A stretch of DNA of 64,000 nt from positions 1 to 64,000 of the forward strand of contig JACQIB010000004.1 in assembly GCA_016198755.1 (NCBI GenBank), in the 5' to 3' direction. The stretch is from Candidatus Aenigmatarchaeota archaeon. Lineage in GTDB: Archaea; Aenigmatarchaeota; Aenigmatarchaeia; Aenigmatarchaeales; JACQIB01. Shown here one piece after another: positions 1-19,400 of this stretch. The notes below the pieces were generated by a model. It had not been told where the DNA came from, did not search any database, and saw nothing but the letters and a program-made list of their open reading frames with translations. The position numbers and the translations under genes are program-made. How positions within the stretch are numbered: the stretch's first letter is position 1; each line of letters starts with the position of its first letter.

Positions 1-429
1 CGCTGCCGGTTTAGCTGGAGTAGCTGCTGTTGGAGTTGGTTATGCTGCTCTTAGAAACTCCAACAATAGAAAATATGGAAACTCCTCTGCCGGCCCCGGA
101 GAAAGATTAAAAACTTTCTGGAACAATGTTGCAAAAGAGGAAAAGTATTATAATGAAGTTAGGGTTCCTGAAATAAATAAAAGGCAGGCTGAGATTGAAT
201 CTATTATAAAGGGGTTTCAGGAACAGGCTAGGAAGAAGAAAGAGAAGGAAGAACTGGAGAAGGTTGCTGAGCAGGTTGCCTGGGTGAATAAGCTGGCTGG
301 TTCAGGGAAATTATCTACTATGGAGGCTGCTAAGGAGTTGAGAGTTTTATCTGGGAGCGCTGGGATTGGGTATGAGAACTCCCAGAAACTGAGAAGCATG
401 AGCAATAAATTTTTAGAGATAGCAGAGGA
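1..429 (+). repeat. Junction repeat, copy 1 (TM + charged helix of the P-family)
   Basis: Reverse complement of 18443-18871, identical over 1-126 and 311-390. Bases 71-370 also match 7680-7979. Confidence 0.95.
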
Positions 430-3226
430 GAATGATAACAGGCAGAAACCTGTTAAAGAATTGCAGAATATTATGGAACTATATAAATCCGGAAAGCTCT
501 CTGCTGAGGATCTGGCAGCAAAGCTCTATAAACTTTCTAAAAATCCTTACCTGAGCTCTGAGTTAAAGGGTGAGATACTTGGAATAAGAGAGGAGATTTT
601 GAAGGCGCTGAGAGAACAGGGGAGAGGAAAAGAGCTCTCTATGGAACCCGATATAGAAAGTGTAAATCAACCCAGTATTCTGGGGGGTATAACAGGTGCG
701 GTTACTGGCTTTGGAAGCTGGGTGGGAAACGGGATAAACTGGCTTGCAAACAATGTTGGCGAACCAATAAATAAGGGAATAGACTGGGCAAAGGGAAAAC
801 TCTGGGGATATGCAGGGAAAGCAATAGGTGCAGGAGCTGGGTTTGTAAACAGTTCTTTGAACCTTGTTTCTACAGTCCCGTTTGTTGGTTCATCTATAAG
901 CAATTCTATTAGAAACACTATTCTAACTTCCCTCTCTGCTATAAATTCCTCTTTAACAAGCATACAAGATTCAATCCTTTCCAAATCAGACTGGATTGAA
1001 AAGACTTCTGATAGTTTGTCTGTTGCTGGAATGGGAATGATAGGGGCTGGCACAGCATCTATGATGACTGGCTTTGGAACTCCATTTGCTTTTCCAACAA
1101 TGATTGCAGGAGCTGGCATGCTGGCTGCAGGCTCTGTAATGGATGTTTCTGTCTGGGGAGCTAAAGAGAGCGCTGGTAAAGCAAATGGATGGGACAGATT
1201 AAGGGGATTGTTTGGAGCTTTAATGTTTGTGCCCGAGATTGGGGCTGCCGGGAAGGTTGGAAGTGTAGGTAAATTGGTAAAAGGTGGAAGAATGTTGGAT
1301 GAATTATCCAATCTAAAATATATTACTAAGGTTATACAAGATGGGAAAGCATTCTACAGACCACATTACTTAAACTTTATAGATTCAGTTAGTGAAACAG
1401 CAGGCAATGCTGTTAGAGTAACAGACAATTTGATACGGAAACTATTCAATGATCAATTACTGAAAAATCCATTTCTGCGCAAGGATATAGAAATATTAAT
1501 TGAGGAATCTGGGGGGAAGAAGGTTCTTGCAGAGACATTTGTTAAAACCGGCGGCTGGTATCTTGGAAACAAAATAGAAAAAATAATATTTTACAGGAAA
1601 GCGATGGAAAAATTCATAAAAGAGATGAAGGTCGATTCTATAGAATCAATAAGAACAATAATAGACCACGAACTGGGGCATGCAGCCAGTGTGGAAAGCA
1701 GTAAGTTCTGGGAGTTTTTCGGCTTTCCTGTTTCGGTAAGAGATTGGATATTAAATAACATTGTGGCAGATCATCCTGGAGTTTTGGAAGAAATATTGAT
1801 GGGCATAAGAGCGGCTGATAATGATATGTCCAGAATAGATATTGTACATAAGATTGAGGATAGTCTAGGAGGCAAATATATGGAAAATTTTGATTTTGTT
1901 AAGCAGGCAATAAGAGAATTAGAAGGTAAAGCAGCTTCTTCTGGCGGACAGTTTAAGGAAGATTTGTTATATTCTGCCAGAAAACTTGAGGGGCTGATGG
2001 AAAAGTATAAGTTGGAAGGCAAAATATTACCTATATTGGGAGCATTGGGTTTGGGTTCTTTGTTTGGCGGGAAGAAAGATGGCAAAAGTGAAAATAATGT
2101 TGGGGGTTTTGAGGACTCTTCCCTAAAGCTCAGAAAAGATTCTCCAGAGGCTGCTAGGAGGGATGACGAATATAACTGGAAAAATATTCTGGCTGCCATT
2201 GGAGGTGTATTGGGAGCAATATTGTTGGGTGCAACAACAATAACATGTAATGGAGCATCGTTGTTATGTCCTGTATTAGAGCCCCCCATAACTGTGACAG
2301 GAACTGTTTTTGACAGTCTCCACAACCCGCTTTATTCCACAAGTGTGTTATTGCATGGTAGTGGGGATATTAATAAAACTCTTACACAACAGAGCGGTAA
2401 TTTTGATGTAATAGGTTATCATAATGGAACTATAACAGCAAAAGCGGAGCTAAAATACTTCCCCAATGGATTGAATTCCGCTGGCCCAGCAATAGAAATG
2501 CTAAAAATAAACAGCCATAATGCAGACTGGTCGGAAACACAAACTGAAACAGTTTCTAACGAGCAGCACGTAATGAATCAAACCTATACTATAGATTTCA
2601 CGTTCTCTCACGATCAGGGAGGAAATGCATATTATGGGTTGCAAAATTCTTATGATTACTGGAGAAACCACGAGACAGCAAATAGGATTTCAGCTTTCGT
2701 GAACGATCCTAGACCTGCTACAGCATATTATTGCCTCGATAAAGACAAGACATTACCTTATAAATGTACAGCAAGTAACGAAATTCACTTTTCAACTGCA
2801 TACCAGACATATGTTCTTGGACTCCACGAGTACGGTCACTCAATATCGCACAATTGGGGCCTGCCTGGTGGGCATGAAGAGCAACCAAATCCAATAGAAG
2901 AATCCTGGGCAGATTTCGTAATTGCATTGGTTCAAAATAATTCATATATAGGTGAGCCATACAATCTGGATATAAAAAATGCCAGAAATGCATCTGCATG
3001 GGGAAGGGAGTGGGCACTTGCAGGTGTAATGTGGGATTTGGAGCAGGAGAAACAGGGGGTTGTGTACGATACTTTAAAACCCAAGGATGATAAAGAAAAA
3101 ACAACTACACTGGAAATTTTGTATAATAAATTTAATAGCAAAGGCGGAATACCATCTAATGATATCTGCCGTATATTTAAAAAACATGGTTTTAATGCAA
3201 CTGCATGGGATCAAAGTTGTGTGTGA
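2..3226 (+). CDS. P1: modular membrane-anchored polymorphic effector/toxin-like protein, 5'-truncated by the window edge (TM, charged helix, Gly-rich hydrophobic region, HExxH zincin, TM, M4/M36-like gluzincin)
   Basis: Frame is open from base 2 (AAGLAGVAAVGVGYAALRNSNNRKYGNSSAGPGERLKTFW), so 284 is not the true start. HELGH at ~1667. HEYGH...IEESWADF...AGVMWDL from ~2825. 5' part near-identical to P3. Confidence 0.85.
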   Translation, partial: AAGLAGVAAVGVGYAALRNSNNRKYGNSSAGPGERLKTFWNNVAKEEKYYNEVRVPEINKRQAEIESIIKGFQEQARKKKEKEELEKVAEQVAWVNKLAGSGKLSTMEAAKELRVLSGSAGIGYENSQKLRSMSNKFLEIAEENDNRQKPVKELQNIMELYKSGKLSAEDLAAKLYKLSKNPYLSSELKGEILGIREEILKALREQGRGKELSMEPDIESVNQPSILGGITGAVTGFGSWVGNGINWLANNVGEPINKGIDWAKGKLWGYAGKAIGAGAGFVNSSLNLVSTVPFVGSSISNSIRNTILTSLSAINSSLTSIQDSILSKSDWIEKTSDSLSVAGMGMIGAGTASMMTGFGTPFAFPTMIAGAGMLAAGSVMDVSVWGAKESAGKANGWDRLRGLFGALMFVPEIGAAGKVGSVGKLVKGGRMLDELSNLKYITKVIQDGKAFYRPHYLNFIDSVSETAGNAVRVTDNLIRKLFNDQLLKNPFLRKDIEILIEESGGKKVLAETFVKTGGWYLGNKIEKIIFYRKAMEKFIKEMKVDSIESIRTIIDHELGHAASVESSKFWEFFGFPVSVRDWILNNIVADHPGVLEEILMGIRAADNDMSRIDIVHKIEDSLGGKYMENFDFVKQAIRELEGKAASSGGQFKEDLLYSARKLEGLMEKYKLEGKILPILGALGLGSLFGGKKDGKSENNVGGFEDSSLKLRKDSPEAARRDDEYNWKNILAAIGGVLGAILLGATTITCNGASLLCPVLEPPITVTGTVFDSLHNPLYSTSVLLHGSGDINKTLTQQSGNFDVIGYHNGTITAKAELKYFPNGLNSAGPAIEMLKINSHNADWSETQTETVSNEQHVMNQTYTIDFTFSHDQGGNAYYGLQNSYDYWRNHETANRISAFVNDPRPATAYYCLDKDKTLPYKCTASNEIHFSTAYQTYVLGLHEYGHSISHNWGLPGGHEEQPNPIEESWADFVIALVQNNSYIGEPYNLDIKNARNASAWGREWALAGVMWDLEQEKQGVVYDTLKPKDDKEKTTTLEILYNKFNSKGGIPSNDICRIFKKHGFNATAWDQSCV

Positions 3227-3232
3227 TTATTA

Positions 3233-3964
3233 ATGATTAAAAAATTGCTTGGAAGCACTGTTCTCGTCTCTATTATAATACTAATATTTTACATCTATCT
3301 TAATTTACAGACCGAGAGCTCTGGCTACTGGAAGCCAGATAAAGCCGAACAGGCTAAACAGCTGGAAACACTAAAACAGATTTATACAGAACGTAACAAC
3401 TGGAGTGCTAGTATAGGTCTAACAGATCATGAAATTCCGAGACGAGTAATATCTGCGGATTATAAACGTATTTATGATAGAGAACTACTCAAAATAATTG
3501 ACGAAAAAACTGCCATTAAGATGGCTACAGATATTATGCAAAACAACCACTCCTATTTTGGCGTGCCTAAAGATCTTAAGATGAAAAACGAAGTTAGAAA
3601 TATCGGTTTTGGAACTTGGGTAATAACATATGAACCACAAACTTATAAGGATTTACAGATTTGTAATGCACAGGATAGTGGTGGGATGTCAATTGATGCA
3701 GACGGTGTTATAACAGATATAGGATTTGTTTGGTATCCCAACCTGACAGCCCCCACTAGACCTAAACTGACAGATGAACAGATAGGCAAAATAGTGGGAG
3801 CACCCCTCGGATGGCTACATGATGGGAAGCTCTGTATTTTTCCCAAGTGGCACCCTGAAGGGGAATATTGGACTTACCATTTGGCAAAGGATTATGGGGG
3901 CCCTATAATAGACACATGGACAGGGGAGACTTTGAAGGAACCGAGACCTCCAATAATAGATTAA
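3233..3964 (+). CDS. Membrane-anchored stand-alone M4/M36 propeptide-like (FTP/PepSY-like) protein; candidate inhibitor/immunity protein or chaperone for P1
   Basis: N-terminal TM. ATDIMQNNHSYFGV...TWVITYEPQTYKDLQI...PTRPKLTDEQI...IIDTWTGETL resembles thermolysin-family propeptides. Starts 6 bp after the P1 stop. Confidence 0.6.
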   Translation: MIKKLLGSTVLVSIIILIFYIYLNLQTESSGYWKPDKAEQAKQLETLKQIYTERNNWSASIGLTDHEIPRRVISADYKRIYDRELLKIIDEKTAIKMATDIMQNNHSYFGVPKDLKMKNEVRNIGFGTWVITYEPQTYKDLQICNAQDSGGMSIDADGVITDIGFVWYPNLTAPTRPKLTDEQIGKIVGAPLGWLHDGKLCIFPKWHPEGEYWTYHLAKDYGGPIIDTWTGETLKEPRPPIID

Positions 3965-4513
3965 GTGATATGCATGCTGTATGTATCGAAAATGCGGAAA
4001 GATCCTATGTTTGGTTTATTGAAAAAGCTGGATATGTCACTTACCCTAAACAGTGGAAATAAAACTGAAATAAATCTGGAGTATGAAAGGGAGTGGGACT
4101 ACAATTATTGGGACTACAATATAATGTATAATGCGAGCGCTATACTGAAAGATTTTAACACTATAAAACACCCGGAGCATATACATTCTTATATTTCTAT
4201 GGAAGAAATTAAATATAAAAATGTTAAGGATAAGATAATTAAGAATCTTACATGGCCAAGGCTTATTGGGATTGGCTTCGTGCCGAATAGGCGTGAGGCG
4301 TTGGCCGCAGCAGCAATTATAGTTAAAAGCAAAGCAATGAAAGACCAACCTAATCTAAAGCCGAATTTAAGTGGTTCTGATATATGTAAAATTTTAAAAG
4401 TAAATGAGAGAAAAATTAGAAAGCTAGTTTCTTCAATGGGTGGGAAGATGCTTTTAAAATCATCCCCACGTTCATGTAAAGTATCTTCATGTAAGGTACC
4501 TACGAAGTTTTAA
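3965..4513 (+). CDS. Hypothetical protein with a TFB/TFIIB cyclin-repeat-like C-terminal HTH; start uncertain
   Basis: REALAAAAIIV...LSGSDICKILKVNERKIRK resembles the LAAAAIY...EIA...V.E.TIR pattern of TFB repeats. Confidence 0.4.
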   Translation: MICMLYVSKMRKDPMFGLLKKLDMSLTLNSGNKTEINLEYEREWDYNYWDYNIMYNASAILKDFNTIKHPEHIHSYISMEEIKYKNVKDKIIKNLTWPRLIGIGFVPNRREALAAAAIIVKSKAMKDQPNLKPNLSGSDICKILKVNERKIRKLVSSMGGKMLLKSSPRSCKVSSCKVPTKF

Positions 4514-4531
4514 CTCCCCACATCAGCCTAC

Positions 4532-4620
4532 TTTATTAGAAATAGCAAATTTACATGTATATAGCCGTTGGTAGCTCTAACCTTCCACATGTTCGTCAAT
4601 TGTACGCGAATAGATGATTA
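4532..4620 (+). repeat. Dispersed non-coding repeat R1, copy 1
   Basis: TATATAGCCGTTGGTAGCTCTAAC (4558-4581) matches the reverse complement of 15512-15535 at 23/24; shared downstream CAATTGTA. Confidence 0.8.
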
Positions 4621-4694
4621 TCCATAAGTAAGTGTCCACTCACCGCAATAGCCACTTGCTCACCTTTAAATATCTAAATACCCTAAAATCTAGA

Positions 4695-5672
4695 ATGAAA
4701 TCTATACTAAAGCTGGCTATTCCTGTTCTTGTAATAGCTGTTTTTATATCATCCATAGCTGTTGCCCAAACAACACTGGAAAAGCAAATACCAATTAAAG
4801 GAAAGTTAACAACCACAACAGGCACCCCTCTCGAGGGTAAATATAACTTTGTATTTGAAATTTTTGATGCTGCAACAGAAGGGAACTCTCTCTGGTCTGA
4901 AACAAAGCAGATATCTGTTACAAAGGGGATTTGGAGCACAAACCTTGGTTCCACAACACCTCTCCCATTCACTATAGCCACTGAAAAACAGCTCTATATT
5001 GAAATAACAGCCAACAGCAAAAAATACAGCCCTCGTTCCCCTATTTACACAGGCCTAACCTCCCGCGACCTTACTCTCCCAAACAGCATTGGAACAGCAG
5101 AGATAAAAACAGACTATGGCATTTTGAGCAAAATAACAGGCAGCCTTTTCACCCTTGTGAATAATGTTTTCAATTTTGCTGGCTCCCTTACCAGCTCAGG
5201 CACAGTAACAGCCTCTAAGCTTGTAGGCAACGCTTCTTCTGGAAACGCAATAGAAGCCTATGGCACAGTTTCAATCAAGTCCAGCCCCACTGCCCAGACC
5301 GGAACCCTGAATATTGGTTCAGGCTCCATTGCCTATACTGCAAACGCATGGACAATAACACCTGGCTTATCCACTGCAAATATACAAGACAATTCCATAA
5401 CCCGCAGCAAAGTCAGTTCTAGTTTTATTCAGGCAGGGAGTGCGACTGTGCTATCAGCTGGTAGCTTGGATATACCATTTCCAACGGCATTTGGTGGCAC
5501 ACCTAACATAGTATGCACAACACAAACAACAAACAGCTATTGCGTTGTAAAAAATCCAAGTTCTGGCACACTTTCTACTGGATTTAAAGCCAACGTTTAC
5601 ATAGACTCAGGTAGCGGTGCAACCTACCCCTCTGGTGGCATAGTGATAAACTGGATCGCAGTCGGAGCCTAA
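4695..5672 (+). CDS. Secreted fibre-like adhesin with a phage tail-fibre (gp53-like) C-terminal domain
   Basis: Signal peptide from MKSILKL (ATG 4695). N-domain GKLT..G.PL.G...F.IFDAAT.GN.LW.E...V..G.W...LG. C-terminus IQAGS...FPTAF...WIAVG. Paralog of 43266-44279. Confidence 0.7.
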   Translation: MKSILKLAIPVLVIAVFISSIAVAQTTLEKQIPIKGKLTTTTGTPLEGKYNFVFEIFDAATEGNSLWSETKQISVTKGIWSTNLGSTTPLPFTIATEKQLYIEITANSKKYSPRSPIYTGLTSRDLTLPNSIGTAEIKTDYGILSKITGSLFTLVNNVFNFAGSLTSSGTVTASKLVGNASSGNAIEAYGTVSIKSSPTAQTGTLNIGSGSIAYTANAWTITPGLSTANIQDNSITRSKVSSSFIQAGSATVLSAGSLDIPFPTAFGGTPNIVCTTQTTNSYCVVKNPSSGTLSTGFKANVYIDSGSGATYPSGGIVINWIAVGA

Positions 5673-5685
5673 ATTCTGACATTTA

Positions 5686-5706
5686 TTTACTCTCCCCGCG
5701 AGTAAA
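5686..5706. promoter_or_regulatory. Palindromic site A: TTTACTC-N7-GAGTAAA (operator or recombination site)
   Basis: Perfect 7-bp arms; related sites at 20335-20356 and 21814-21835. Confidence 0.6.
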
Positions 5707-5834
5707 ATATCCCAAACCCAGCTTTTTAACCTTTTCCGTTCCATATTATCTATGCTCAGTAGTAATACGACAGACAACGTGCAGAGGATGCCTTTTTATT
5801 CCAGAAAAACCATTTCTCTTTTGGGGTTCAGAGT
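5699..5834 (+). promoter_or_regulatory. Upstream region conserved between P2 and P3, with TATA-like TTTTTAA and TTTTTATT
   Basis: Aligns with the reverse complement of 20218-20342: GAGTAAAATA.CCCAAA.CCAG...TATCTATGC...GCCTTTTTATTCC...ATTTCTCTTTTGGGG. Confidence 0.7.
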
Positions 5835-8800
5835 ATGAACAAATTATTTTGTATAGTGGCAGCTACCCTCTTCCTTTTAACTATACCAACTGTTTCCTTT
5901 GCCCTAGATCCTTCTATACCAGACAATAATTGGAGAGTTTTTGTTTCCCATGCGTACGGGGCAATAAACCCTGGTCCAGACTGGAATAAACTAAATTATA
6001 ATGACAGTTCTTATGTTTCGGTAATTAACGGAGAAGGGTGGACAACAAAAACGAGCGGAACAGAGCCGATGGGAACCACAGGCAGCGATTCAATTTACTT
6101 TAGAAAGTGGATAGACTGGAGCGGGCAGGATTTGTGGTTGAAATCTTGGGATGGGTATGGTGGGGAGTGTTTTGTTAACGAGCAAAGGGTAGCGGAGAAG
6201 CACTTCTATCTATCCAAATACCTGAAGCCAGGGAAAAACCTGATAGCCTGCTATATTATTGGACCAGGCATGGACGGTATTATGTCTACTTTTTATGGGA
6301 ACCTTATTACAGTTTCTGATAACCAGATAGCCTGGTCCAATGACTGGACAGACTGGTATCTTACTGACAGGCCTGTTACTACAGGAACAGAGGGCAAGTA
6401 TTATTATTGCTATAATGGGAATTGCAAGGAAACGGGTTTCTGGGCCTCTGCCTGGCCCTGGTCCACCGGCGGAGGAACGGCTTTCAAGAAATCAATCTAT
6501 CTTTCTAGCACAAACAACTCTTATCTTCTGGTTGGGTCGAACGTTGGCACTGGTGGGTTCTGGTGCTCTGTAAACGGAGATTGGACAAAACCGGATTCCC
6601 TTGTAGGCTTTTCCCAAAACACACATGAAAAGTACAATTTAATTGCTGATGTTTCCACAAAAGTAAAGCCTGGCTTGAATATAGTAACCTGCTTTATCTC
6701 CACTTATTCTGAACCAAATCCCTATCCAAAGGGTTTTAAAAAGTTTGATATGAATTTTGTGCAGTTGCCCGTTAAATCTGATATAACTGGACTGGCAGAA
6801 TATTCTGTTCCGATAGATGATGCAACAATAACTGCTTTGGTTTCCGGTTCTGGCAATACTACAGTATATGCTGAGCTGTTAAAGGGAACACGGTCTATAG
6901 ATAAGATAGAAACAGATACTGTTCTGGCTGGTACAGGAACAGTTAAACTAACATTGGATGTTTCAAAGGATAAAGCTGTCCAGTCCAGCAGGAATACATG
7001 GAAATACTATGTTGTAAACCATCTCAATCCTGTTCCCAGCTCAGACTGGTATAAAATTGGTTTCGATGCAGAATCCTGGGGAGATACTGATATGCCTACA
7101 TCTGCTGGAGGAGGGCCACTATTTATAAGGAAAATATTATATTTAGAAAAGCCCATTGATATTAAACTGAAAGCATGGGAGGGATATGCTGGATATTGTT
7201 TCGTAAATGAAAACAGAGTGGAGGGGCAGAATATACAGATAGGGCAATACCTAAGGGCAGGGGAGAATGTTATTGCATGTTCAATCTGGGGTCCGGGGAG
7301 GGACGGGATAACAACAACTTTCTATGGAGAACCTGTTCTACCACCTACCTATACTGTTTTATCCAATAGTTTTGGAGATTGGTTTATTGTTAACAGCACC
7401 GAAAGTCCAATTCTTTCCCTTACTGAACCAAAAAAGTATTCTGTTAAAATAACAGCTGTTTATAATGAGTATGGGATTTCCAAATCTGCAAACTACCCAA
7501 TCGAGTTTACAGAAACCCCAATTGTTCTGCCAATAACTGGAAACCCGTTTGTTCAGGATACTGGATCGGGCGGTAACACAGGAACAAGTTCTAGTTCCAG
7601 TTCTTCTGCAATACCGCTTGCTTTAGGTTTAACAGCAGTGGGTGCTGTTGGCGCTGGGTATGTTGCTCTGAATGGAAGGAAATATGGAAACTCCTCTGCC
7701 GGCCCCGGAGAAAGATTAAAAACTTTCTGGAACAATATTGGAAAAGAGGAAAAGTATTATAATGAGATTAGGCTACCTGAAATAAATAAAAGGCAGGCAG
7801 AGATTGAGTCTATTATAAAAGGGTTTCAGGAACAGGCTAAAAGAAAGAAAGAAGCGGAGGAACTGGAGAAGGTTGCTCAGCAGGTTGCTTGGGTGAATAA
7901 ACTGGCCGGCTCTGGAAAGTTATCCACTATTGAGGCTGCTAAGGAGTTTAGGTTATTGGCTGGGACTGCTGGGATTGGGGCTGGAGCTTCCAGCGCTCTC
8001 TGGCAGGCTAGCTCAAATTTATTGGAGGAACAAACCGTCAAACCCCCAAAAAATAACCAGAGCTACCTATACTCCACATCATCTACTACAGCAGTCTATG
8101 ATCCATATTTGGAACAAGGCCCCACAAGTGCAGAATACCTGTCGAGCGGAATCAATTGGTTTGTTAATGCCATGTGGGATAAGTTTGACTGGGTTACTGG
8201 GAAAGCAACAGGATTTGCAAAGGATGTTTACAATACTCTAAAGCCACTTCCGCTAATAGGTCCACTTGTAAGCTGGGCTGGTCCTCCAGTAGCCGGCACT
8301 GTTTATTGGGCATATGATACGGCGGACAATTACATATATGCTAACAGGAATACTATAGCCGGGGTTAGTGTTGGGCTTAGCGTGACTGGGATAGGGTTTA
8401 TGGTCATTAGCATGGCTGCTGCCCCTGAGGCTGGAGCAGCGGCTGGGCCTTATGGGCTTGCATTTGACACTAGTTTGTTTGCTATCGGAGCTATAGCAAC
8501 TGCAGCTGGGGGTGTTATAGATGTGGCTCTTGGAAATTCCTATCTCAGAAGAAAGGAGAGAGTAGAGGGTACTGTACTTTTGATTAGCGGTTTCATGAGC
8601 TTTATACCTAGTGGGGCAGTAGAGAGAAAAGGACTGGAAATTATTGCAGAAAATACACTGAAACAGATTGGAAAAGAGGGTTCTGTAAGGCTTGTCAGTA
8701 GATGGGGGAAATATGCAGAATGGGCTGCACTATACCTGAAACATAACGGGAGGGCTGTTACAGAGGAGGAGATAGAAATGCTTGTCAAGAGCCGCATAGG

Positions 8801-9617
8801 GTATTTGAAAACCCTGAACAATCCGGAGCTGAATGCAAAAATAGCTCAGTTGGATACAATGGATCCGTTTATGACTCCGGCTAGGAGAAAATTGTTGCTG
8901 GAGGATGTGTTTGAGAGTGATATGACCATAAACATAATTGGAAATATAGACGAGTCTATTTTGAAGGGTATATCTAATAAATACGGACACGACGTTGCAG
9001 AGTTGATAAGGCTTGACGCTAAAACAATGGGAAGGAAGCTTACAGAGGCTGAGGTGAATATTCATGCGAGATCACTCAACTATTTATTAAAAAATGGGTT
9101 TCAGATAAATGAAGTTGAAAGATTCTTGTCAAATCAGATGAGTAGTGCCGAAAGAAAAGTATTTTTAGAAAAGGTAAAACCATTAGAGAACACCATAGAA
9201 GAAATAAGAAATCCAGCCTTTACAAAAACTCCAGATAAGATTTTCGGTAATGTTATAATAGAAGAAAAAGCTATTACAAAAGAAGGACTTATTATTAGAG
9301 ACGTAGAAGATTTGATGAATGAATTAAAAGGTGCGAGGGAACAACTAAAACCAAATGAAGCAGCTATAGGTAAAGCTTATAATAAGCCTATATATGTTAC
9401 AGATGGTTATCATAAGATTATAAGCTATGATGCTAGGAAAGGTATATGGAAAGCCAATACAAACAATTTTATAGCTGATATGAGAGGGTTTTTAGAAGAT
9501 ACACGTGCTCAGCATATAGATGAAATATATATAACTATAAAAGAAAACAATATAGAAAAGACATTTCGTGTATTTAGAGGTATTAGAAGAGAAGTGTTGT
9601 CTGAGGTGATTGTATAA
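5835..9617 (+). CDS. P2: polymorphic toxin-like protein (signal peptide, galactose-binding-like jelly rolls, NPFVQD-TM junction, hydrophobic region, C-terminal PD-(D/E)xK-like nuclease)
   Basis: Signal peptide. YFRK...CFVNE...YLKPGKNLIAC repeats. NPFVQDTG...AIPLALG TM at ~7542-7670. TPDKIFGNVIIEEK at 9228-9269. Stop overlaps the next start (TAATG). Confidence 0.8.
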   Translation: MNKLFCIVAATLFLLTIPTVSFALDPSIPDNNWRVFVSHAYGAINPGPDWNKLNYNDSSYVSVINGEGWTTKTSGTEPMGTTGSDSIYFRKWIDWSGQDLWLKSWDGYGGECFVNEQRVAEKHFYLSKYLKPGKNLIACYIIGPGMDGIMSTFYGNLITVSDNQIAWSNDWTDWYLTDRPVTTGTEGKYYYCYNGNCKETGFWASAWPWSTGGGTAFKKSIYLSSTNNSYLLVGSNVGTGGFWCSVNGDWTKPDSLVGFSQNTHEKYNLIADVSTKVKPGLNIVTCFISTYSEPNPYPKGFKKFDMNFVQLPVKSDITGLAEYSVPIDDATITALVSGSGNTTVYAELLKGTRSIDKIETDTVLAGTGTVKLTLDVSKDKAVQSSRNTWKYYVVNHLNPVPSSDWYKIGFDAESWGDTDMPTSAGGGPLFIRKILYLEKPIDIKLKAWEGYAGYCFVNENRVEGQNIQIGQYLRAGENVIACSIWGPGRDGITTTFYGEPVLPPTYTVLSNSFGDWFIVNSTESPILSLTEPKKYSVKITAVYNEYGISKSANYPIEFTETPIVLPITGNPFVQDTGSGGNTGTSSSSSSSAIPLALGLTAVGAVGAGYVALNGRKYGNSSAGPGERLKTFWNNIGKEEKYYNEIRLPEINKRQAEIESIIKGFQEQAKRKKEAEELEKVAQQVAWVNKLAGSGKLSTIEAAKEFRLLAGTAGIGAGASSALWQASSNLLEEQTVKPPKNNQSYLYSTSSTTAVYDPYLEQGPTSAEYLSSGINWFVNAMWDKFDWVTGKATGFAKDVYNTLKPLPLIGPLVSWAGPPVAGTVYWAYDTADNYIYANRNTIAGVSVGLSVTGIGFMVISMAAAPEAGAAAGPYGLAFDTSLFAIGAIATAAGGVIDVALGNSYLRRKERVEGTVLLISGFMSFIPSGAVERKGLEIIAENTLKQIGKEGSVRLVSRWGKYAEWAALYLKHNGRAVTEEEIEMLVKSRIGYLKTLNNPELNAKIAQLDTMDPFMTPARRKLLLEDVFESDMTINIIGNIDESILKGISNKYGHDVAELIRLDAKTMGRKLTEAEVNIHARSLNYLLKNGFQINEVERFLSNQMSSAERKVFLEKVKPLENTIEEIRNPAFTKTPDKIFGNVIIEEKAITKEGLIIRDVEDLMNELKGAREQLKPNEAAIGKAYNKPIYVTDGYHKIISYDARKGIWKANTNNFIADMRGFLEDTRAQHIDEIYITIKENNIEKTFRVFRGIRREVLSEVIV
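7680..7979 (+). repeat. Junction repeat, copy 2
   Basis: Matches 71-370 directly and ~18502-18801 in inverted orientation. Confidence 0.9.
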
Positions 9618-10114
9618 TGTCTTACGATTTGATTTTTAAATTTAAATTTTATAGAAACGCGGTAGTAGATGTAGAGCAAATCATAAAAATTATTCTATCT
9701 GTTTTCCCCATAAAATTTACAAAATCCCCAGAATATATCGTTGTGTATTACGATGAAAAGTTTTGTAAGGACTTTCACATAAATTCTGAAAAGTATCTAT
9801 TTGAGCGGATAAATGAAGTTAAAAACCTCGGTTTAATTAGGGAGGTTGGTTTTGGATGTAGACTGTTAGGTAGACATTTTGATATAGATATTACAAAATA
9901 CAAACTTGGAGACAACATTAACAGCAATGTTTTCTTGTCGTCTGTCTCTAAGGCGTGGATTAAAGCTCCAATAGAAGAAAAGAAACAGTTTAATAACATG
10001 CTGAGAGTGTTAGAGAAAAGGCTTAAACCCGAAATTAAATCTCTAGACAATGATATAGCAAAGTATATGTTGGATAAAGTAGATAAGAACGGATTTATAA
10101 TAAAGCAAAGATAG
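9617..10114 (+). CDS. Probable immunity protein for P2
   Basis: 165 aa, AT-rich, 1-bp overlap with the P2 stop, no signal peptide. Confidence 0.65.
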   Translation: MSYDLIFKFKFYRNAVVDVEQIIKIILSVFPIKFTKSPEYIVVYYDEKFCKDFHINSEKYLFERINEVKNLGLIREVGFGCRLLGRHFDIDITKYKLGDNINSNVFLSSVSKAWIKAPIEEKKQFNNMLRVLEKRLKPEIKSLDNDIAKYMLDKVDKNGFIIKQR

Positions 10115-11103: not shown

Positions 11104-11135
11104 CAACATTTCCTTCTTTTGATTAGGTGATCACC

Positions 11136-11348: not shown

Positions 11349-11422
11349 GGAAGGGGCACTAACATACATACCTATACATGGTAAAATACACTGAATAATA
11401 TAACAAAAGACATAGATTTAAA

Positions 11423-11998: not shown

Positions 11999-12152
11999 TG
12001 CTTCAAAAGCTATTTTACAATTAGAATTATTTTAACTACTAAACATAATCCGCCAGTTGAGATTAGAAAGTTTTTGACAAAGGATAATATAGCTCTTCGT
12101 ATAATAGATTAATACAACTAGAATTGCAAGTAGTGTAAGTGCCAGAGAATAT

Positions 12153-12219
12153 GTGTGGTGTTGAGCAGTATTAATCGTCGGTATCTCTATCCCCAATATT
12201 CGGCAATTGTAGTGCAAAA
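12153..12219 (+). repeat. Dispersed non-coding repeat R1, copy 3 (degenerate)
   Basis: GTGTGGTG...CGTCGGTATCTCTA...GGCAATTGTA aligns with the reverse complement of 15481-15551. Confidence 0.6.
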
Positions 12220-12256
12220 CATGGGTTTATATAAGTTTCGGTTTATAATTATTGTC

Positions 12257-15200
12257 ATGGCAAAGGGCGTTCAGCTGCATAGGAGAAGAATTGTACATAT
12301 TCCTGCTCCAGTGCAAAATGGGTATGGTTCTGGTAGTTATGTTCCTCCAGCTCAAGCTGTTGCAGATATTAGAGAAAATCCCTTGATTGCTGTTGCTTGT
12401 GCAATGTATGGTCCAAGGCCAAATGCAAGATATGGCTCTTCTTCTAATTTTAGGCCATTAAAAGGGACTGAGAGAGCGCTCAGGGATGCTGCAACCCAAT
12501 ACAAACAGGGAGAACATCCTGTTTTAAGCGCTGTTGCAAGGGCTGGGTATTCTGTTATTAAAGCTGTGGATGATGTTGCTGGGCCTGCTGTTGGTATTGT
12601 TGCTGTTGGAACATTGGCTACTATAGGTGGGGTTGTTCCACTTGAAAAGGATTCAACTGGGAAAACACCTGAAAAGATTTCTGAGCATCCTGATAAAGAA
12701 CAAGCAAAAGTTCCAATTGTTAAGGAGGCAAAAGAGCCTGTTAAGGTATCAGAGAAAATGAAAGGGCAGGAGTATAAAGCTCCTGAGAAACAGGAACCTG
12801 TAAAAACAGTTGCAAAGGGAAGGGGGAGAGCTGCTACAGAATTCTTTGCTGGAGCTGGGCAGGTTGTTAGTTATGTTTCTGCTGTTGATGGGGGAAATGC
12901 TGATGGGAGTTTTGATCCTTCTGACAGGGCTCAGGTACAGCAGGTTGGGCCAATAGCTCAGTATTTGGCTGGAGTAGCTTCTGCTTTTAAGGATACTGAC
13001 CCAGCGAATGGTATTTTTGTGCAGCACTGGTGGAACATGCAGCAACAGATGAAGAGTAATGTTACGCAGGATTTGAGCGGGGCGCCTGGGGGTAATTGCG
13101 GGCAAAGTGTAGACGAAGGTGGGGCACGGTATAACGGTGCCCATAAAGCTTTGGAGTATATTGCTGCAATGAAAGCGCTGGCTGGAAAGGCTGGGCTGGA
13201 TATTAATGGCTCTCCAGCTCAGAAGCCTGGAAATTATCTGGGAGTGTTTGGATGGGAGGTTTCAAAATCGATAAGAGCAAATGAGGCTGCAACAAACAAA
13301 GCTCTACAGCAGGGGTGTACAGTAGATAAAAGTGAAGCTTACATTCCAGCAGAGGATATTGGACCTGGAGTTGATACTTTAGCAAAGCTTGCACAGGCTG
13401 TTGATGGGTTAAAGCAGTGGGTTGATAAAGAGCCAACTGGATTAGGGCCTGTTAGCCCATGGGTTGCTGGGGTAGATAATTTAGGGAAGGTTTATACAGG
13501 GGCTTTAGCAAGAGCTTCTGCGCAGGCTTTGGTTGATGGTATAGGGCTTGCAAAGAAATACAATGATGCTGGGTTGGGAATAGATCAGGTTTCAGATGCG
13601 TTCGCAGGATTGGTTCCGTTTAATTTACCACCAACAATAGAGGGGTTGGCTCTGGATTCTGCGGTTCCAGCATATCTCGGCTTTGAGCCTATATTGAAAG
13701 GAAATATGAGAGATCCTGATGGAAAGGGGATAAGATCTGGCCAAGTACAGGTTGGGGATGATATAGCAGATTTGCCTGTTTCCGGGAAAGTAACTGAAAA
13801 AATAGAATATGCTCTAAAGAACTTGCGTTTAGGAAATAATAAAGTTCTTGTAAGGGCAGGTGATAGCGCATGGGTTGTGGATACAAGCATGGATGTAAAT
13901 GTAACTGATCCTGCTCCAACAATGGATACATGGAACTCTTCAGTTGAGAAAGTAAGCGATGGATTGTATAAAGTTTATGTTTCTGCTTTCCTTGCTGATG
14001 ATAATGACAATATAGATGGTGTAAGGGCTGTGGATGTGAATGGTTCTGGGTTTAATATTGGGTTAGAGAAAACAACTGTAACAAAACTGGAGAATGGGAA
14101 GACTTTTGTAAGGTATGAAGGGGTGCAGAATGTTAGATTAAAGAATCCTGGGGATTCAAAGGATTTGACTTTGCAGTTAAGGTATAAGGATCCTACAAAC
14201 CCTGAAGTACAGGCACCGAATACTGAGAGGATTAACGTTGTTTATCCAAAGCCAGCACCGCCAAATCCAATAAATAATGGAACACCTAACGGAACTCCAC
14301 TAAATAATTCTACGGTTATTCCACCGATAGTAGATAATGGAGATGGGCACACAGAGCCACCGAGGGATTATAGGGGATTGCTTGCTGGTTTAGTTGCTTT
14401 GGGAGGAGGCGGTGGAGCAGGAATTTGGCAGCGCAGAAGGATTGCAGCTGCTTTGGGTATGGGAAGTAGAATCAATGGTGGAAATGTAAGATATACTCCG
14501 CTGGCTGGGAATGGATATTCCCAAAATGTTGATCTGACATCAATATTGGATGCAATTGTCTATGTTGGGCCAGGAGGAAGGGTAATGTTTGTTGAACAGT
14601 CTAAGAGAGGAAATCAGTTCTTATCAAAGGGTTCAAGGATAGATACTGATTTGGCAGGTGGGATGATAGATGCTGTATTAAGTGGTCTGGGCCAAGTATT
14701 GGGAAATAATATTAGTAGTGCTGTTACAACATTGGCTGATGGAAGCAAAGCAAGATATGTTAGGGGCAGGAGTGGGGATGTGCTTTGCATAATAACCAAC
14801 CCTAAACATGCTAATGCGCCTCCAGAACAACTTTCTTTGGTATTGCCTCAACTTGACCAAAAATTGGAACAGGAGATGGAGCAAACAATGAGAGATATAG
14901 AAAACCTTGTTCCTGAGCTGAAAGATTGGCAGGGGGAAACATCTTCTACAGATAGTGCAGGACAAAAAGTAAATGCACCAATTGTAGATAGAATTGCAGA
15001 AGTTGTCAGGACTAGGGTTATTGAAGGAAAGGATCCAGTATTAGTTTTACAGCCTCTACCACAAGCTTCTGTACCACCTGTTGATTCTAGGGGAGGTTTA
15101 TTGGATGCGCAGGGGGAGGCTGAGAGACCCACAGGGGATATACCTCACCCAGAGATAACAGCCCATGTTCAGCCTGCAGATGGGTTTGGGCCTCCAGTTA

Positions 15201-15472
15201 GGCCTAAGCCAAGGGTTGTTTCTGACCAGTCAATGTCTCCACCGCCTATGCCAACTGGAGTTTCAGACCTTTTGGCTTCAACACCAGCCCCTCCAACAGA
15301 TAGTGTTGCTTTGAGAGCTAGTGTAATGAGAGGGATGGAGCCTCCGGAAGATTTATCAGGAGTTGGGATGCATCCCGGTGTTCCAGCAAACGGGAATGGG
15401 GAACATGTGGATGTGGAAGGGATTTTGGGTGGATTGGGATTAGGGAAAGGAAAGGGCGGGGCAGGGAGATAA
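12257..15472 (+). CDS. Large membrane protein: ectodomain with Ig-like modules, TM, cytoplasmic longin/roadblock-like domain and Pro-rich tail
   Basis: Likely start MAKGVQL (12257) after a TATA-like TTTATATA. TM GLLAGLVALGGGGGAGIWQRRR. IDTDLAGGMIDAV...ELKDWQG motif. Confidence 0.7.
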   Translation: MAKGVQLHRRRIVHIPAPVQNGYGSGSYVPPAQAVADIRENPLIAVACAMYGPRPNARYGSSSNFRPLKGTERALRDAATQYKQGEHPVLSAVARAGYSVIKAVDDVAGPAVGIVAVGTLATIGGVVPLEKDSTGKTPEKISEHPDKEQAKVPIVKEAKEPVKVSEKMKGQEYKAPEKQEPVKTVAKGRGRAATEFFAGAGQVVSYVSAVDGGNADGSFDPSDRAQVQQVGPIAQYLAGVASAFKDTDPANGIFVQHWWNMQQQMKSNVTQDLSGAPGGNCGQSVDEGGARYNGAHKALEYIAAMKALAGKAGLDINGSPAQKPGNYLGVFGWEVSKSIRANEAATNKALQQGCTVDKSEAYIPAEDIGPGVDTLAKLAQAVDGLKQWVDKEPTGLGPVSPWVAGVDNLGKVYTGALARASAQALVDGIGLAKKYNDAGLGIDQVSDAFAGLVPFNLPPTIEGLALDSAVPAYLGFEPILKGNMRDPDGKGIRSGQVQVGDDIADLPVSGKVTEKIEYALKNLRLGNNKVLVRAGDSAWVVDTSMDVNVTDPAPTMDTWNSSVEKVSDGLYKVYVSAFLADDNDNIDGVRAVDVNGSGFNIGLEKTTVTKLENGKTFVRYEGVQNVRLKNPGDSKDLTLQLRYKDPTNPEVQAPNTERINVVYPKPAPPNPINNGTPNGTPLNNSTVIPPIVDNGDGHTEPPRDYRGLLAGLVALGGGGGAGIWQRRRIAAALGMGSRINGGNVRYTPLAGNGYSQNVDLTSILDAIVYVGPGGRVMFVEQSKRGNQFLSKGSRIDTDLAGGMIDAVLSGLGQVLGNNISSAVTTLADGSKARYVRGRSGDVLCIITNPKHANAPPEQLSLVLPQLDQKLEQEMEQTMRDIENLVPELKDWQGETSSTDSAGQKVNAPIVDRIAEVVRTRVIEGKDPVLVLQPLPQASVPPVDSRGGLLDAQGEAERPTGDIPHPEITAHVQPADGFGPPVRPKPRVVSDQSMSPPPMPTGVSDLLASTPAPPTDSVALRASVMRGMEPPEDLSGVGMHPGVPANGNGEHVDVEGILGGLGLGKGKGGAGR

Positions 15473-15474
15473 AA

Positions 15475-15562
15475 TCCAGATATTTACATACAATTGCCAA
15501 ACATTTGAGGAGTTAGAGCTACCGACGGCTATATATGTTAATTCACCACACTGCTAATAAAC
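15475..15562 (-). repeat. Dispersed non-coding repeat R1, copy 2 (inverted)
   Basis: Reverse complement aligns with 4532-4620 and 12153-12219. Confidence 0.8.
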
Positions 15563-15585
15563 TGGACAACTACGAGAGCTAACGG

Positions 15586-16026
15586 GTGTTAGATATAGAG
15601 CTTAGAAAAATAATATATGGTCTTATTTTGATAGCCTTTGTTGTGACAACTGTTATTTTCTGGCAAATAATGAAATTAAATGAGCTGAATAATGGTAGCG
15701 AGCTTAAGAACAATGTTGCAGAATTTATACAAAAATTTCATACATTAAAGTCTGCTGGAAAGGATAGTTTTGACAACATCACACTTCATGTCCCAAATGG
15801 ACAACACCTCACCATAGACATAGAAGACACATCTAGCTATATCAGCTATTACAATGGTTTAAACTTCACTTTTATCTTACCAGCTAAAATAATAAAATTT
15901 AAAGACAAAGATACGATATACACAAAGGGTAAGATAAATTTTACGAATGACACGTATAAGATAAAGTTATATTATGGTGTACTAAAGGACGAAAATATTG
16001 AACCGTGGACTCTCACTTTTGAGTAA
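15586..16026 (+). CDS. Small protein with N-terminal TM, possibly archaeal pilin-like
   Basis: GTG start; hydrophobic helix followed by an amphipathic helix and beta strands; no clean class III cleavage site. Confidence 0.5.
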   Translation: MLDIELRKIIYGLILIAFVVTTVIFWQIMKLNELNNGSELKNNVAEFIQKFHTLKSAGKDSFDNITLHVPNGQHLTIDIEDTSSYISYYNGLNFTFILPAKIIKFKDKDTIYTKGKINFTNDTYKIKLYYGVLKDENIEPWTLTFE

Positions 16027-16082
16027 TTGTGTTCTATAAAGTGCCAATGCATAAAATCCATCAGCACTTCGCTCTAACGACA

Positions 16083-16457
16083 TTATTTGAAGCGTTTTTT
16101 TATAATATTCAATGTATTTTCTGTTATTTTGCCTTTTGTTTTCAAGTCCTTTTTAGCAGCCCTATAAAATAATTTGAATAACAAATAGGATTTTTTATCC
16201 TTAGGTGGATTTATAATACTATCCAGTGTTTTTTGGGATTCACCACGACGCTTTAATTGATCAACATATTCCTCAAATCTTTCGTAACCTTCTATTATTG
16301 CTTTTTGTCTTTCTATATCAAATGATATGGCTTTTAAATGATCCCTCAAGACACCCAATGCAGCTTCTTCTTTGCTCAGTCTCTTATTTATAGCATCCGT
16401 TAAAATAAAACTTCCATACCATGGCTTAAAGGTTTTAGGTGTATTATACTTAGACAT
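16083..16457 (-). CDS. Probable immunity/partner protein of P3
   Basis: 124 aa; overlaps the P3 3' end by 8 bp. Confidence 0.6.
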   Translation of the reverse strand: MSKYNTPKTFKPWYGSFILTDAINKRLSKEEAALGVLRDHLKAISFDIERQKAIIEGYERFEEYVDQLKRRGESQKTLDSIINPPKDKKSYLLFKLFYRAAKKDLKTKGKITENTLNIIKKRFK

Positions 16458-19400
16458 TTTCTATCACACTCCTCATAGTTTTTATAGTTTTATCAAGATA
16501 TGTTTTCGTGGCCGGGGAAAGTCTGCTTATTATATCATTCAGTTGATGATTTACAATATCATCACTTAGATTTAAGGTCTTTAAGTATGCAATATCAGAA
16601 ATATTTTCTTCTCCAATGGATAATATTTTATCGGATTTATTATAAAAATATTTTATATTAGATAACAATGACTGTACAGTCTCACTCCACCCCTTTACCA
16701 TTCTCGGATCTTCTTTAAGTACAAGATAATCGGCAATCAAGCGTTCTTCTATGGTTTCTGTAAGCTCCTTTTTGGCTGCTTCGGATATATCCAACTTATC
16801 CACCATTTTAGCAATATCATTTTCTGTCGGTATCTTTCCAGCAGCTCTTAGCTCTTCTTTCAATATTTCCTTTGTCTCGTGGCGCATTCCAAATTCGAAT
16901 CCGTCTTCAGATAGTTTGGCAGCTTTTATAGGGTTTACACCCAATATTTTTGTTCCCTTTACAACTCCAAAAGAAGCATCTAGTCCCTCGCTGTCTACAA
17001 TATAATTTGTAAAGCTTTTGTCCGATAATATGCGCTCTATTCTATTGTTGGATATTCCGGATTTCGAGAGCTTTGAAGCAAATCTAGCTAATCGCCCAGC
17101 TTCTGTTGTTGTCAATTTCCTTCCAGTTTTTAGAACAATACGTCCCACAAGTTCGACAGCTTCCTCTCCGTTTGCTTTTATTAGCGTTTGAAGACCTTTG
17201 CGCCCAATCATTTCAACAAGTAACTTTACACCCGATTTTGTTGGCATTTCTATAACGCCACCTATTGGCATAAGATCTGCCATATCCCAAGCATCTAGAA
17301 CCAATCCAGCACCCATAAACTCTACAATCGCCTGTTCAGCATGAATTTCACTTATGCCTAACTGCTGGGAAATTACAAGAGGTGCATCTTCCCCATATCG
17401 CATAACAGCATCATCTACTATCATCTGATCAGTTGGATTTCTTTTATAGGGTTCAATAAATGTGTAATAGAAATTATTTGAAATTGTTGACACCCTATCT
17501 GATACGGTCTTTCCTACATTTTTTACTATGTTAAACATTCCAAAAAATCCATAATTTTGATAAGAATCATTAAATACATTGTCTAGATTAGACAAAAGCT
17601 CTATATATTTTTCCCTACTTCCAACTGTTCCTTTATCTATAGTATTTTTCAGCCAGCTGTCTAATAAAGTCTTTATTTTGCCGTATTTTTCTTTGCTAAC
17701 TAAGCCATTATTAATAAAGAAACTAGAAAGATTGCCGGCGTTCTTTATTGAGAGCTTATCCCCAGACCTCTCTGCCAATAACTCAGCAGCTACAATTTGT
17801 TCGAGCTCGCGCTTTGTAAGTTTAACATCTGGATGTTCTGTGTATCTTTCTATTAAATAAAGTTGCTGCATAACAAAATAATTAACTTTAGAATTAAATT
17901 GTTCTACACCTGCTTTAACTCTTATTAAATCGTCCGCCTCAAGTTCATCAAGCCATGTATTGGTGTAGTATCTTGCGCTATCCAACTGAAGATCCCATCG
18001 GTTCTGATAACGGTTCTGATGTATGTACAGGTGTGCCATCTCATGTGCTATAGTTGATTTAGTTACAAAACTATAAACATCTACAGTTTCTTGTATCTTA
18101 TCATCTACCTCTCGGTATATCTTATCTGTTGGAGTTTTCAATACAATGAAATTCAGACTTGCCTCAGCATTTCTATCATCTCCAATATTTCCTAAGGCCA
18201 CAAAATCAGGCTTTATACCAAAATTAGCTTCTTGTTTCTCTATTTCACGTTCCAATATGCTACGCTCTTCTTGTGGTAGTGTACTTAGTGGTTTCCAGCC
18301 TTCTATCAAAGCATGAAGTCCATCGCTAGCATGAAATATGGCGCCTTTTGTCCAATCTAGAATATTGCTTACCCCATTCATAATGTTTTGCGGTATACTA
18401 GAGATTCCATTAATATTAATCGTATTTCTGTTGTTTTCATTATCCTCTGCTATCTCTAAAAATTTATTGCTCATGCTACTAAGTTTCTGGGAGTTCTCAT
18501 ACCCAATCCCAGCGCTCCCAGATAAAACTCTCAACTCCTTAGCAGCCTCCATAGTAGATAATTTACCTGAGCCAGCCAGTTTATTCACCCAGGCAACCTG
18601 CTCAGCAACCTTCTCCAGTTCTTCCTTCTCTTTCTTTTTCTTAGCCTGTTCCTGAAACCCCTTTATAATAGATTCAATCTCAGCCTGCCGTTTCTTTATT
18701 TCCGGAACCCTAATCTCATTATAATACTTTTCCTCTTTTCCAATATTGTTCCAGAAAGTTTTTAATCTTTCTCCGGGGCCGGCAGAGGAGTTTCCATATT
18801 TTCTATTGTTGGAGTTTCTAAGAGCAGCATAACCAACTCCAACAGCAGCTACTCCAGCTAAACCGGCAGCGAGCGGGATTGCAGAAGAACTAGAATCTGT
18901 TCCTGCGCTGTTAGAGCCGCCACCGGAATCCTGAACAAACGGGTTTCCTGTTATTGGCAGAACAATTGGGGTTTCTGTTATTTCCAGGTTGTAATCCTTG
19001 CTCTTGCTAATCCCATACTCATTGTAAACAGCTGTTATTTTAACAGAGTATTTTCCTGTCTGGTTAATATTCAAAGTTAACGGAACTTCTGTTTGCCCGT
19101 CCAAATCCAGAGTATCTTCTATGGGCAGAGCAACACTCTTCCCGTTTTCAAACAGTTCGGCATAAACTGTTGCATTCCCTGCACCGTTAACCAAAACTGT
19201 TATTGTTGGATCTTCAACTGTAACAGAATAGCTGGAAAGCCCTAAAATATCCAGAGACTTTTGCACAAAACTCATGTCAAATTTCTTGAAACCACCCGGT
19301 CTGGGGTTTGGTTCTGCATAAGTGGAGACCCAGCAATTTATATTATTTATGCCTGGCTTTACCTTACTGGAAATGTCAGCCATAAGGTTGTACTTTTCGT

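Follow-up and report, generated by a model that had tools for sequence, protein, structure and literature searches.

The first 64,000 nucleotides (nt) of contig JACQIB010000004.1 (hereafter C2), from the assembly GCA_016198755.1 of a Candidatus Aenigmatarchaeota archaeon, constitute the window analyzed here. Its first 20 kb hold three long paralogous genes, P1 and P2 on the forward strand and P3 on the reverse strand, whose products are predicted to be membrane-anchored surface proteins (Table 1). The genome was assembled from short-read metagenomes and comprises 0.89 Mb in six contigs, with a completeness of 89.5%. Base 1 of the window is the start of C2 and falls inside a repeat that P1 shares with P3. 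Positions 1-71 overlap exactly with the last 71 nt of a second contig, C5 (C5:193107-193177), on which the N-terminal 470 codons of P1 are found (C5:191767-193177). We took the 5' half of P1 from C5 across this overlap, and negative positions denote nt upstream of window base 1.

All three proteins are built to one plan: a hydrophobic signal peptide, an ectodomain, a Ser/Gly linker, a single membrane helix followed by basic residues, a junction, and a tail. As judged by hydropathy only, a cleavable-type hydrophobic N-terminus precedes an ectodomain of 400-570 amino acids (aa), which is made of modules of ~150 aa with an immunoglobulin (Ig)-like end and probably serves to bind another cell. The junction is a K/E-rich helical segment of ~110 aa that closes with a GIG motif. 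The tails beyond it are modular, 550-950 aa long, and each is followed by a small, translationally coupled gene. As a candidate archaeosortase signal, the "IPL plus helix plus basic" stretch prompted a search for an archaeosortase (PF09721), which was not detected in the genome; since the control was itself detected in only 1 of 14 genomes, this negative carries little weight. The plan is not confined to P1-P3, as at least eight proteins of the genome combine a signal peptide, an ectodomain, a membrane helix, and a long HExxH-bearing tail, with tail modules exchanged among them.

At the DNA level, the three genes are most alike around the junction. In the repeat search, P1 and P3 match in inverted orientation over 440 nt (1-440 and 18432-18871; 96% identity), P1 and P2 match directly over 300 nt (68-367 and 7677-7976; 88%), and P2 and P3 match in inverted orientation over 303 nt (7677-7979 and 18502-18804; 90%). 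The repeat encodes the linker, membrane helix, and helical segment, and in all pairs identity stops at the onset of the differing C-terminal parts, the sequences past the GIG motif being unrelated. An initial annotation of this DNA had described near-identical inverted repeats that end where the variable C-terminus begins, and the repeat search bears this out. Including the part on C5, the P1/P3 tract extends to 670 aligned nt with 26 differences (96.1% identity), and its longest exact run, 189 nt from -61 to +127, contains the contig break. No further junction copies beyond those of P1, P2, and P3 occur in the genome. A second shared block, of 121 nt and 88% identity, lies at the 5' ends of P2 and P3 (5782-5902 and 20150-20270). 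The annotation had regarded the upstream region and signal peptide of P3 as P2-like; this holds for the signal peptide and ~50 nt before the ATG, and not farther upstream, where it is P1 and P2 that agree (85-100%).

Relatives of these proteins are rare. Among 5.8 billion clustered proteins, two full-length external relatives were found, P0005, which is the ortholog of P2, and P0006. No family member was present in the 40 relatives searched, none of which belongs to the same genus, 370 other genomes of the phylum yielded one weak match, and the family alignments had no match in genome contigs and Joint Genome Institute (JGI) metagenomes. The five family members carry four unrelated tails, with a tail part common to P1 and P0006 only. 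Six of the ten pairs among the five proteins show no tail similarity, and the boundary lies at the same GIG motif in all five. The sole long tail match, between P1 and P0006, has 40.8% identity over 218 aa; shorter likenesses involve the first 28 residues past the cut (P1-P3), a 52-aa linker (P2-P3), and a stretch of 164 aa at 22.5% identity (P2-P0006). P2 and its ortholog P0005 have unrelated tails, and in P0006 the head is partly P3-like and the tail P1-like. The N-terminus of P0006 is patchy, being nearer P3 in alignment columns 1-100 and nearer P1 in columns 250-300, and the tree does not resolve its position. Taken as a whole, these sequence comparisons provide good support for the junction as the evolutionary point of tail exchange.

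Two smaller observations concern the modularity of these proteins. P2 and P0005 have an extra internal copy of the ~150-aa N-terminal module (window 6984-7394 in P2), which P1, P3, and P0006 do not have. P2 (8952-9100) and P3 (17020-17169) have in common a helical linker of ~50 aa (42% identity) that immediately precedes the last domains, themselves unrelated; this linker may represent a second, inner joint for domain exchange.

The junction also bears signs of recent copying between the paralogs. Synonymous divergence (dS) between P1 and P3 ranges from 0.39 to saturation in the ectodomain, falls to 0.03-0.15 over ~200 codons of the junction, and returns to saturation in the tails. Since purifying selection on the protein cannot produce such a drop in dS, it argues for recent copying at the P1/P3 junction. 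A comparable signal comes from P2, whose ectodomain is 70.9% identical to that of P0005 and whose junction is only 60.8% identical to that of P0005, compared with 78-80% to the junctions of P1 and P3. The P2 junction is thus nearer to its paralogs than to its ortholog, which is concerted evolution within the genome.

A recombination test on the three copies, suggested as a check in the initial annotation, gave a highly significant result. Over the first 590 codons of P3, 324 sites agree with P1 and 157 with P2, clustered in blocks to an extent that none of 10,000 shuffles attained; at 99 sites P3 is the odd one out. At finer scale, P3 equals P1 from -61 to +127, is P2-like at positions 128, 132, 157, and 158, and is then P1-like to about 440. 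This four-site patch alone is not significant (3304 of 10,000 shuffles cluster as tightly), and four changes in P1 would explain it equally well. The small P2-like patch pointed out in the initial annotation is real, though not significant by itself. The proposed gene conversion between copies is borne out by the junction drop in dS together with the block mosaic, and these sequence patterns support well an ongoing or recent conversion among all three genes.

The source being a short-read metagenome-assembled genome, we considered whether the P3 mosaic, or the identity of P1 and P3, might be a chimera of paralogs or strains created during assembly. The 189-nt exact run is longer than typical reads, and the contig breaks within the repeat. 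A chimera would, however, equal its donors, whereas the P3 blocks are just 60-90% identical to theirs and 99 sites are private to P3, so that this origin is unlikely on the sequence itself; in addition, the discriminating sites around the small patch fall within about 140 nt. Window positions 1-20000 were also compared with Logan contigs (k=31-type) of four groundwater runs from one study. These independently assembled contigs match 18991-20000 and 7743-18472 without differences, although the runs may be the source samples. An assembly artefact is on these grounds very improbable.

The tail of P3 provides the most detailed view of what is being exchanged. It contains two modules, termed A and B. 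Module A has invariant residues H109, E110, H113, and E142/E144 in the five sequences available, also ends three other giant proteins of the genome, and has only sub-threshold matches in Pfam, to SprT-like (E 0.016) and MPTase-PolyVal (E 0.3). Module B matches 17 proteins among 1.84 billion at E <= 0.001, its own paralogs included. It terminates large proteins of different build and also occurs as small stand-alone genes in other genomes (P0015, P0018). The module B model is confident, with a predicted local distance difference test score (pLDDT) of 89.9, and places an invariant H97 and E98 (HExx[E/Q]) on a helix that follows a three-stranded sheet.

Module B travels with the small gene behind it. 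Homologs of the 124-aa partner of P3 (36-37% identity, E 1e-10 to 3e-15) directly follow module B, with the same 8-nt overlap, at all four loci with context, namely the window, G265, the metagenome contig L022, and the Nanoarchaeia-labelled genome L023. The cassette is patchily distributed over DPANN lineages. Complex prediction for module B and its partner gave an interface score (ipSAE) of 0.87 against 0.02 for the best control, a mark that 58 of 80 solved complexes reached, as did 2 of 110 mismatched pairs; at least 95% of contacts recur between runs, and the partner has a pLDDT of at least 89. In the model, the interface takes in H97 and residue 101 of module B, and partner residues 2-24 run along that cleft. 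Conserved synteny and modelling together support a two-gene cassette with predicted binding. At the L023 locus, small open reading frames (ORFs) follow the module B cassette (L023:7558-8885), and on visual inspection one of them resembles an MNT/HEPN-type nucleotidyltransferase.

The arrangement in this model recalls serralysin inhibitors and tissue inhibitors of metalloproteinases (TIMPs), whose N-terminus plugs the active-site cleft of a metallopeptidase. The likeness concerns the modelled path of the partner N-terminus along the module B cleft, and module B has HExx[E/Q] instead of HExxH.

The corresponding parts of P1 and P2 are less informative. Their downstream ORFs are tightly coupled and without relatives, the 243-aa ORF having no homolog in the genome. 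The annotation had paired each C-terminus with its downstream gene as a toxin-plus-immunity module; a unit of module and cognate small gene is supported for P3, whereas P1 and P2 offer only the coupled ORFs. The P2 tail has no homolog of similar or shorter length and is a singleton among the 5.8 billion proteins, and its single-sequence model is poor (pLDDT 47.6). In the Atlas, it resembles clusters of Tox-REase, a restriction-endonuclease-fold toxin, at 0.79-0.88, which is below 0.9 and serves as a lead only; the terminal domain of P1 resembles unnamed bacterial clusters at 0.94-0.95, one with 14% Mycolysin_M, likewise a lead only. Pfam, NCBIfam, and PADLOC returned nothing above threshold for P1-P3, the neighbouring ORFs, or the external relatives, and no Pfam toxin, immunity, or pre-toxin family was detected in the P1-P3 system. 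A sequence search of solved structures gave no match for P1, P2, P0005, or the module A and B profiles. The Gly/Ala-rich hydrophobic hairpin was considered as a pre-toxin TG domain and dismissed, as Pfam gave no support even at E <= 10. By hydropathy, the compartments predicted for the partners agree with those of the terminal domains; signal peptides are absent from the partners of P2 and P3. We infer that the tails may act as effector enzymes, zincin-like peptidases or possibly nucleases, and the model of the P3 complex suggests that the small partners could be inhibitors of an immunity-like kind.

The explanation that we favor, at a probability of roughly 0.6, is that P1-P3 represent an undescribed polymorphic-toxin-like family of a DPANN archaeon whose tails are swapped at the junction through homologous recombination. 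Within the genome, gene conversion among the three copies keeps the junction DNA nearly identical, and across genomes it is at the junction that differing tails are joined to related ectodomains. Of the terminal modules, at least module B of P3 moves with its cognate small protein as a two-gene cassette. The exchanges would proceed via general homologous recombination (RadA), as in the C-terminal displacement of bacterial polymorphic toxins, and a reciprocal crossover between P1 and P3 would appear as an 18-kb inversion, such events being probably occasional rather than programmed. The tails would act as effector enzymes and the small partners as their immunity-like inhibitors; in the P3 complex, the model seats the partner's N-terminus in the cleft with the invariant His-Glu pair.

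Several observations weigh against this explanation. The P2 and P3 tails are predicted, by hydropathy and the positive-inside rule, to lie in the producer's own cytoplasm, and a route for their export is not evident, unlike in classical secreted polymorphic toxins. The genome has no orphan tail cassette with junction homology, its junction copies numbering three in all. Module A occurs in at least four proteins of this one genome, a distribution more in line with a housekeeping or processing role than with a diversified toxin. The resemblance of module B to zincins is weak: zincin rows reach Z 4.0-5.0 among unrelated rows of equal Z (best row 5.3), a Foldseek search with the module B model returned nothing at E <= 0.001, and the motif lacks the second His of HExxH. 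The comparative base is thin, consisting of two full-length external relatives and one weak match, and the pairing of heads with tails in P1 and P3 depends on how the assembler resolved the 189-nt exact repeat.

Alternatively, no conflict system would be involved, and the proteins would be receptors or adhesins with regulated cytoplasmic peptidase tails, the small partner being a substrate or regulator and the junction being conserved chiefly for its function and homogenised as a side effect of paralogy. BlaR1/BlaI-type signalling offers a comparison for such an arrangement. The predicted cytoplasmic location of the tails, the lack of signal peptides in the P2 and P3 partners, and the HExxH modules shared by no fewer than eight proteins built in this way in one genome would all agree with such a role. 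In protein sequence, too, the junction is conserved between genomes (55-67%), and the 124-aa partner is most conserved at its C-terminus, not at the modelled interface. Among DPANN archaea, the combination of ectodomain, membrane helix, and cytoplasmic enzyme in one protein has a precedent in the SPEARE proteins (PMC6642349). Tails turn over completely between close orthologs, and the P2 tail is a singleton of 5.8 billion, which would however be unusual for signalling hardware. Every tail is moreover tightly coupled to a downstream gene that belongs to no family, and the module B cassette is scattered across DPANN lineages. We consider this receptor-like reading unlikely.

Returning to the exchange of tails by recombination, its geometry in this genome raises the question of inversion, which the initial annotation had likened to a shufflon. 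P1 (+) and P3 (-) converge and the repeat is in frame, so a crossover within it would flip about 18 kb and leave each tail, together with the gene behind it, joined in frame to the other ectodomain. The R64-type shufflon comprises the Rci recombinase, sfx sites, and pilV, with one expressed 5' part and promoterless alternative 3' segments. The likeness is that an inversion between inverted repeats would exchange the C-terminus of a surface protein; the differences are that recombinase, short sites, and silent segments are replaced here by coding repeats of 300-670 nt in three separately started, complete genes. In the 89.5%-complete genome, searches for tyrosine recombinases (PF00589, Xer-type included) and serine recombinases (PF00239) had no matches, with controls detected in 14 of 14 and 12 of 14 genomes, respectively. 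The candidate crossover sites are stretches of coding homology at 88-96% rather than short specific sites. A conserved 5' block and a signal peptide of its own are present in every one of P1, P2, and P3, and because all three keep their own 5' ends, there is no expressed locus served by silent cassettes. Homologous recombination by RadA, an archaeal-type copy of which is encoded in the genome (E 2.3e-98), is the only evident route. The convergent, in-frame layout is real, but a programmed, shufflon-like inversion is not supported.

In another reading, RadA crossovers in the 670-nt repeat would flip the 18 kb frequently enough for both arrangements to coexist in the population, so re-pairing two ectodomains with two cassettes of tail and partner, as a slow functional analogue of a shufflon. 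The convergent genes, the in-frame 96% tract, and the 189-nt exact run would favor this, and the region's only assembly break lies inside that run, where the end of C5 is equally identical to P3 and P1, so that P1 cannot be linked. The patchwork of P0006, with its more P3-like N-terminus and P1-like tail, would be in keeping with such re-pairing, although its signal is the patchy one noted above. The island also varies among strains: in the contigs of the four runs, loose ends at 4852, 11167, 13801, 14430, 14900, and 16121 lead into DNA that is absent from the genome, showing that other strains in the same samples differ within it. A joint of low depth (about 4x) connects 16138 to 14412, with 35 other letters between. 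Two further candidates were set aside, as an apparent "opposite strands" joint from 5902 to 20000 corresponds to the shared signal-peptide block and a loose end at 5902 to the 5' region of P1 itself on C5.

Set against frequent inversion, the contigs of all four runs end at the repeats and none bridges them, so an alternative junction neither did nor could appear in them. The break inside the exact run is sufficiently explained by a two-copy repeat longer than the reads; by the same token, the assembly itself is no proof of which head carries which tail. The genome has no site-specific recombinase of the two families searched, and P1 and P3 each keep their own 5' region, so a swap would offer selection little. 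We judge an active inversion polymorphism to be distinctly unlikely.

For the preferred reading of occasional tail exchange by homologous recombination, the closest known logic is the C-terminal displacement of polymorphic toxins (Zhang et al. 2012, PMC3482391; Koskiniemi et al. 2014, PMC3967940), and in archaea that of VARTIG (PMC8416519). Rhs/CdiA polymorphic toxins have a conserved N-terminal delivery or anchoring part, a sharp boundary, and a hypervariable, enzyme-like C-terminus, with a small cognate gene directly downstream and reassortment of tails by recombination in the conserved region; HExxH peptidase modules built into polymorphic toxins are likewise known. Relative to those systems, the family here differs in the membrane helix between ectodomain and tail, the predicted cytoplasmic location of the tail, the absence of a linked known secretion apparatus, of orphan junction-bearing cassettes, and of any Pfam toxin, immunity, or pre-toxin family, and the DPANN host. 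VARTIG of Thermococcales, for which an analogy to polymorphic toxins has been discussed (Makarova et al. 2021, PMC8416519), is also a large archaeal surface protein with a C-terminal region reshuffled by recombination and variable downstream genes. According to that paper, what varies in VARTIG is an extracellular Ig domain preceding a sorting signal, and its exchanges occur between species, none within the locus, whereas in P1-P3 the variable region comes after the membrane helix and recombination can be demonstrated inside the genome. A literature search on DPANN polymorphic toxins and on polymorphic toxins in archaea found no description of the present architecture.

With regard to topology, SPEARE is the one published DPANN precedent. 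These proteins of Nanohaloarchaeota, for which a role at host contact has been proposed (Hamm et al. 2019, PMC6642349), are portrayed in that paper as combining an extensive ectodomain of adhesion type with a single membrane helix on the C-terminal side and a cytoplasmic part that is enzymatic. By the same description, SPEARE tails are conserved and type III restriction-enzyme-like, whereas the tails here are variable, zincin-like, and partnered, and proteins of the P1-P3 type are much smaller (1.1-2 thousand aa). In Pfam at E <= 0.1, no ResIII or helicase domain was found in P1, P2, or P3.

A role at host contact could also be combined with re-pairing at the junction, in a scenario of anchored effectors that we regard as a long shot. 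The ectodomain would dock the tiny archaeon onto its host, and, once the two membranes are fused or bridged, the single-helix anchor would let the cytoplasm-facing tail diffuse across into the membrane of the host, whose cytoplasm it could then act on. At home, the tail, a peptidase or nuclease, would be restrained by its partner. The junction would serve to re-pair host-binding heads with effector-plus-immunity cassettes, with reversible P1-P3 inversion as one route and both P1/P3 arrangements coexisting.

Beyond P1-P3, at least five further giant proteins follow the same plan, their long tails ending in an HExxH module, two in the window (50813-55633 and 55687-61881) and three elsewhere (C2:80003-84994, C3:4113-9797, and C3:11305-17544), and the tail modules of the giants are combinatorially common to P1, P3, and the external P0005. 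Neighbouring genes include a split Hef-like nuclease and helicase and a class II aminoacyl-tRNA synthetase; with the archaeal type of RadA, they fit a chromosomal archaeal setting. The Hef-like pair, encoded as two genes (an ERCC4/HhH nuclease and a DEAD/ResIII helicase), lies in tandem with a HerA/DUF87-type ATPase on the reverse strand (39687-43195). This row is followed by three ORFs of unknown family, one of which is paralogous to a 346-aa ORF at 4632-5672.

Table 1. Features of the P1-P3 locus and its paralogs (window coordinates).
Feature	Position	Strand	Description
Junction repeat, P1 copy	1..440	+	Membrane helix and conserved K/E-rich helical segment; extends 229 nt upstream on C5
Junction repeat, P2 copy	7677..7979	+	88% identity to P1, 90% to P3
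Junction repeat, P3 copy	18432..18871	-	Near-identity to P1 runs on to about 19100
Shared 5' block, P2 copy	5782..5902	+	Signal peptide and ~50 nt before the ATG
Shared 5' block, P3 copy	20150..20270	-	
P1, 3' part	2..3226	+	1074 codons, truncated by contig start; tail with HELGH and HEYGH (HExxH) and more hydrophobic helices
243-aa ORF	3233..3964	+	Starts 6 nt past P1; N-terminal membrane anchor; candidate partner of P1 terminal domain
P2	5835..9617	+	1260 aa; signal peptide, ectodomain with extra module, membrane helix 592-610, junction, orphan tail with hydrophobic hairpin
165-aa ORF	9617..10114	+	Start overlaps P2 stop (TAATG); no membrane helix; candidate partner of P2 tail
124-aa P3 partner gene	16083..16457	-	8-nt overlap with P3
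P3	16450..20217	-	1255 aa from ATG at 20217 (start matching P1 and P2); open frame extends to 20289
Module B	16453..17169	-	Last 239 aa of P3 (residues 1017-1255, numbered from ATG at 20217)
Module A of P3 tail	17560..18369	-	HEMAH and invariant Glu ~30 residues on
Paralogous scaffold, 1606 aa	50813..55633	-	Signal peptide, then ectodomain, membrane helix, and a long tail whose last part matches P1 residues 490-677 (HExxH module)
Paralogous scaffold, 2064 aa	55687..61881	-	Tail matches P1 hydrophobic region and P3 module A

Little is known of the means by which DPANN archaea attach to their hosts and manipulate them, and the large surface proteins of this group mostly lack annotation. The one linkage able to reveal an inversion polymorphism at this locus is concealed by the contig break. 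The locus offers a concrete, testable unit in which head and membrane helix are followed by a junction and then by an exchangeable, putatively enzymatic tail with a predicted inhibitor, and in module B and its 124-aa partner it contains a small cassette that is found in more than one DPANN lineage. It is also clear evidence for the use of internal recombination, in a genome smaller than 1 Mb, to keep and reshuffle surface-protein genes of this kind.

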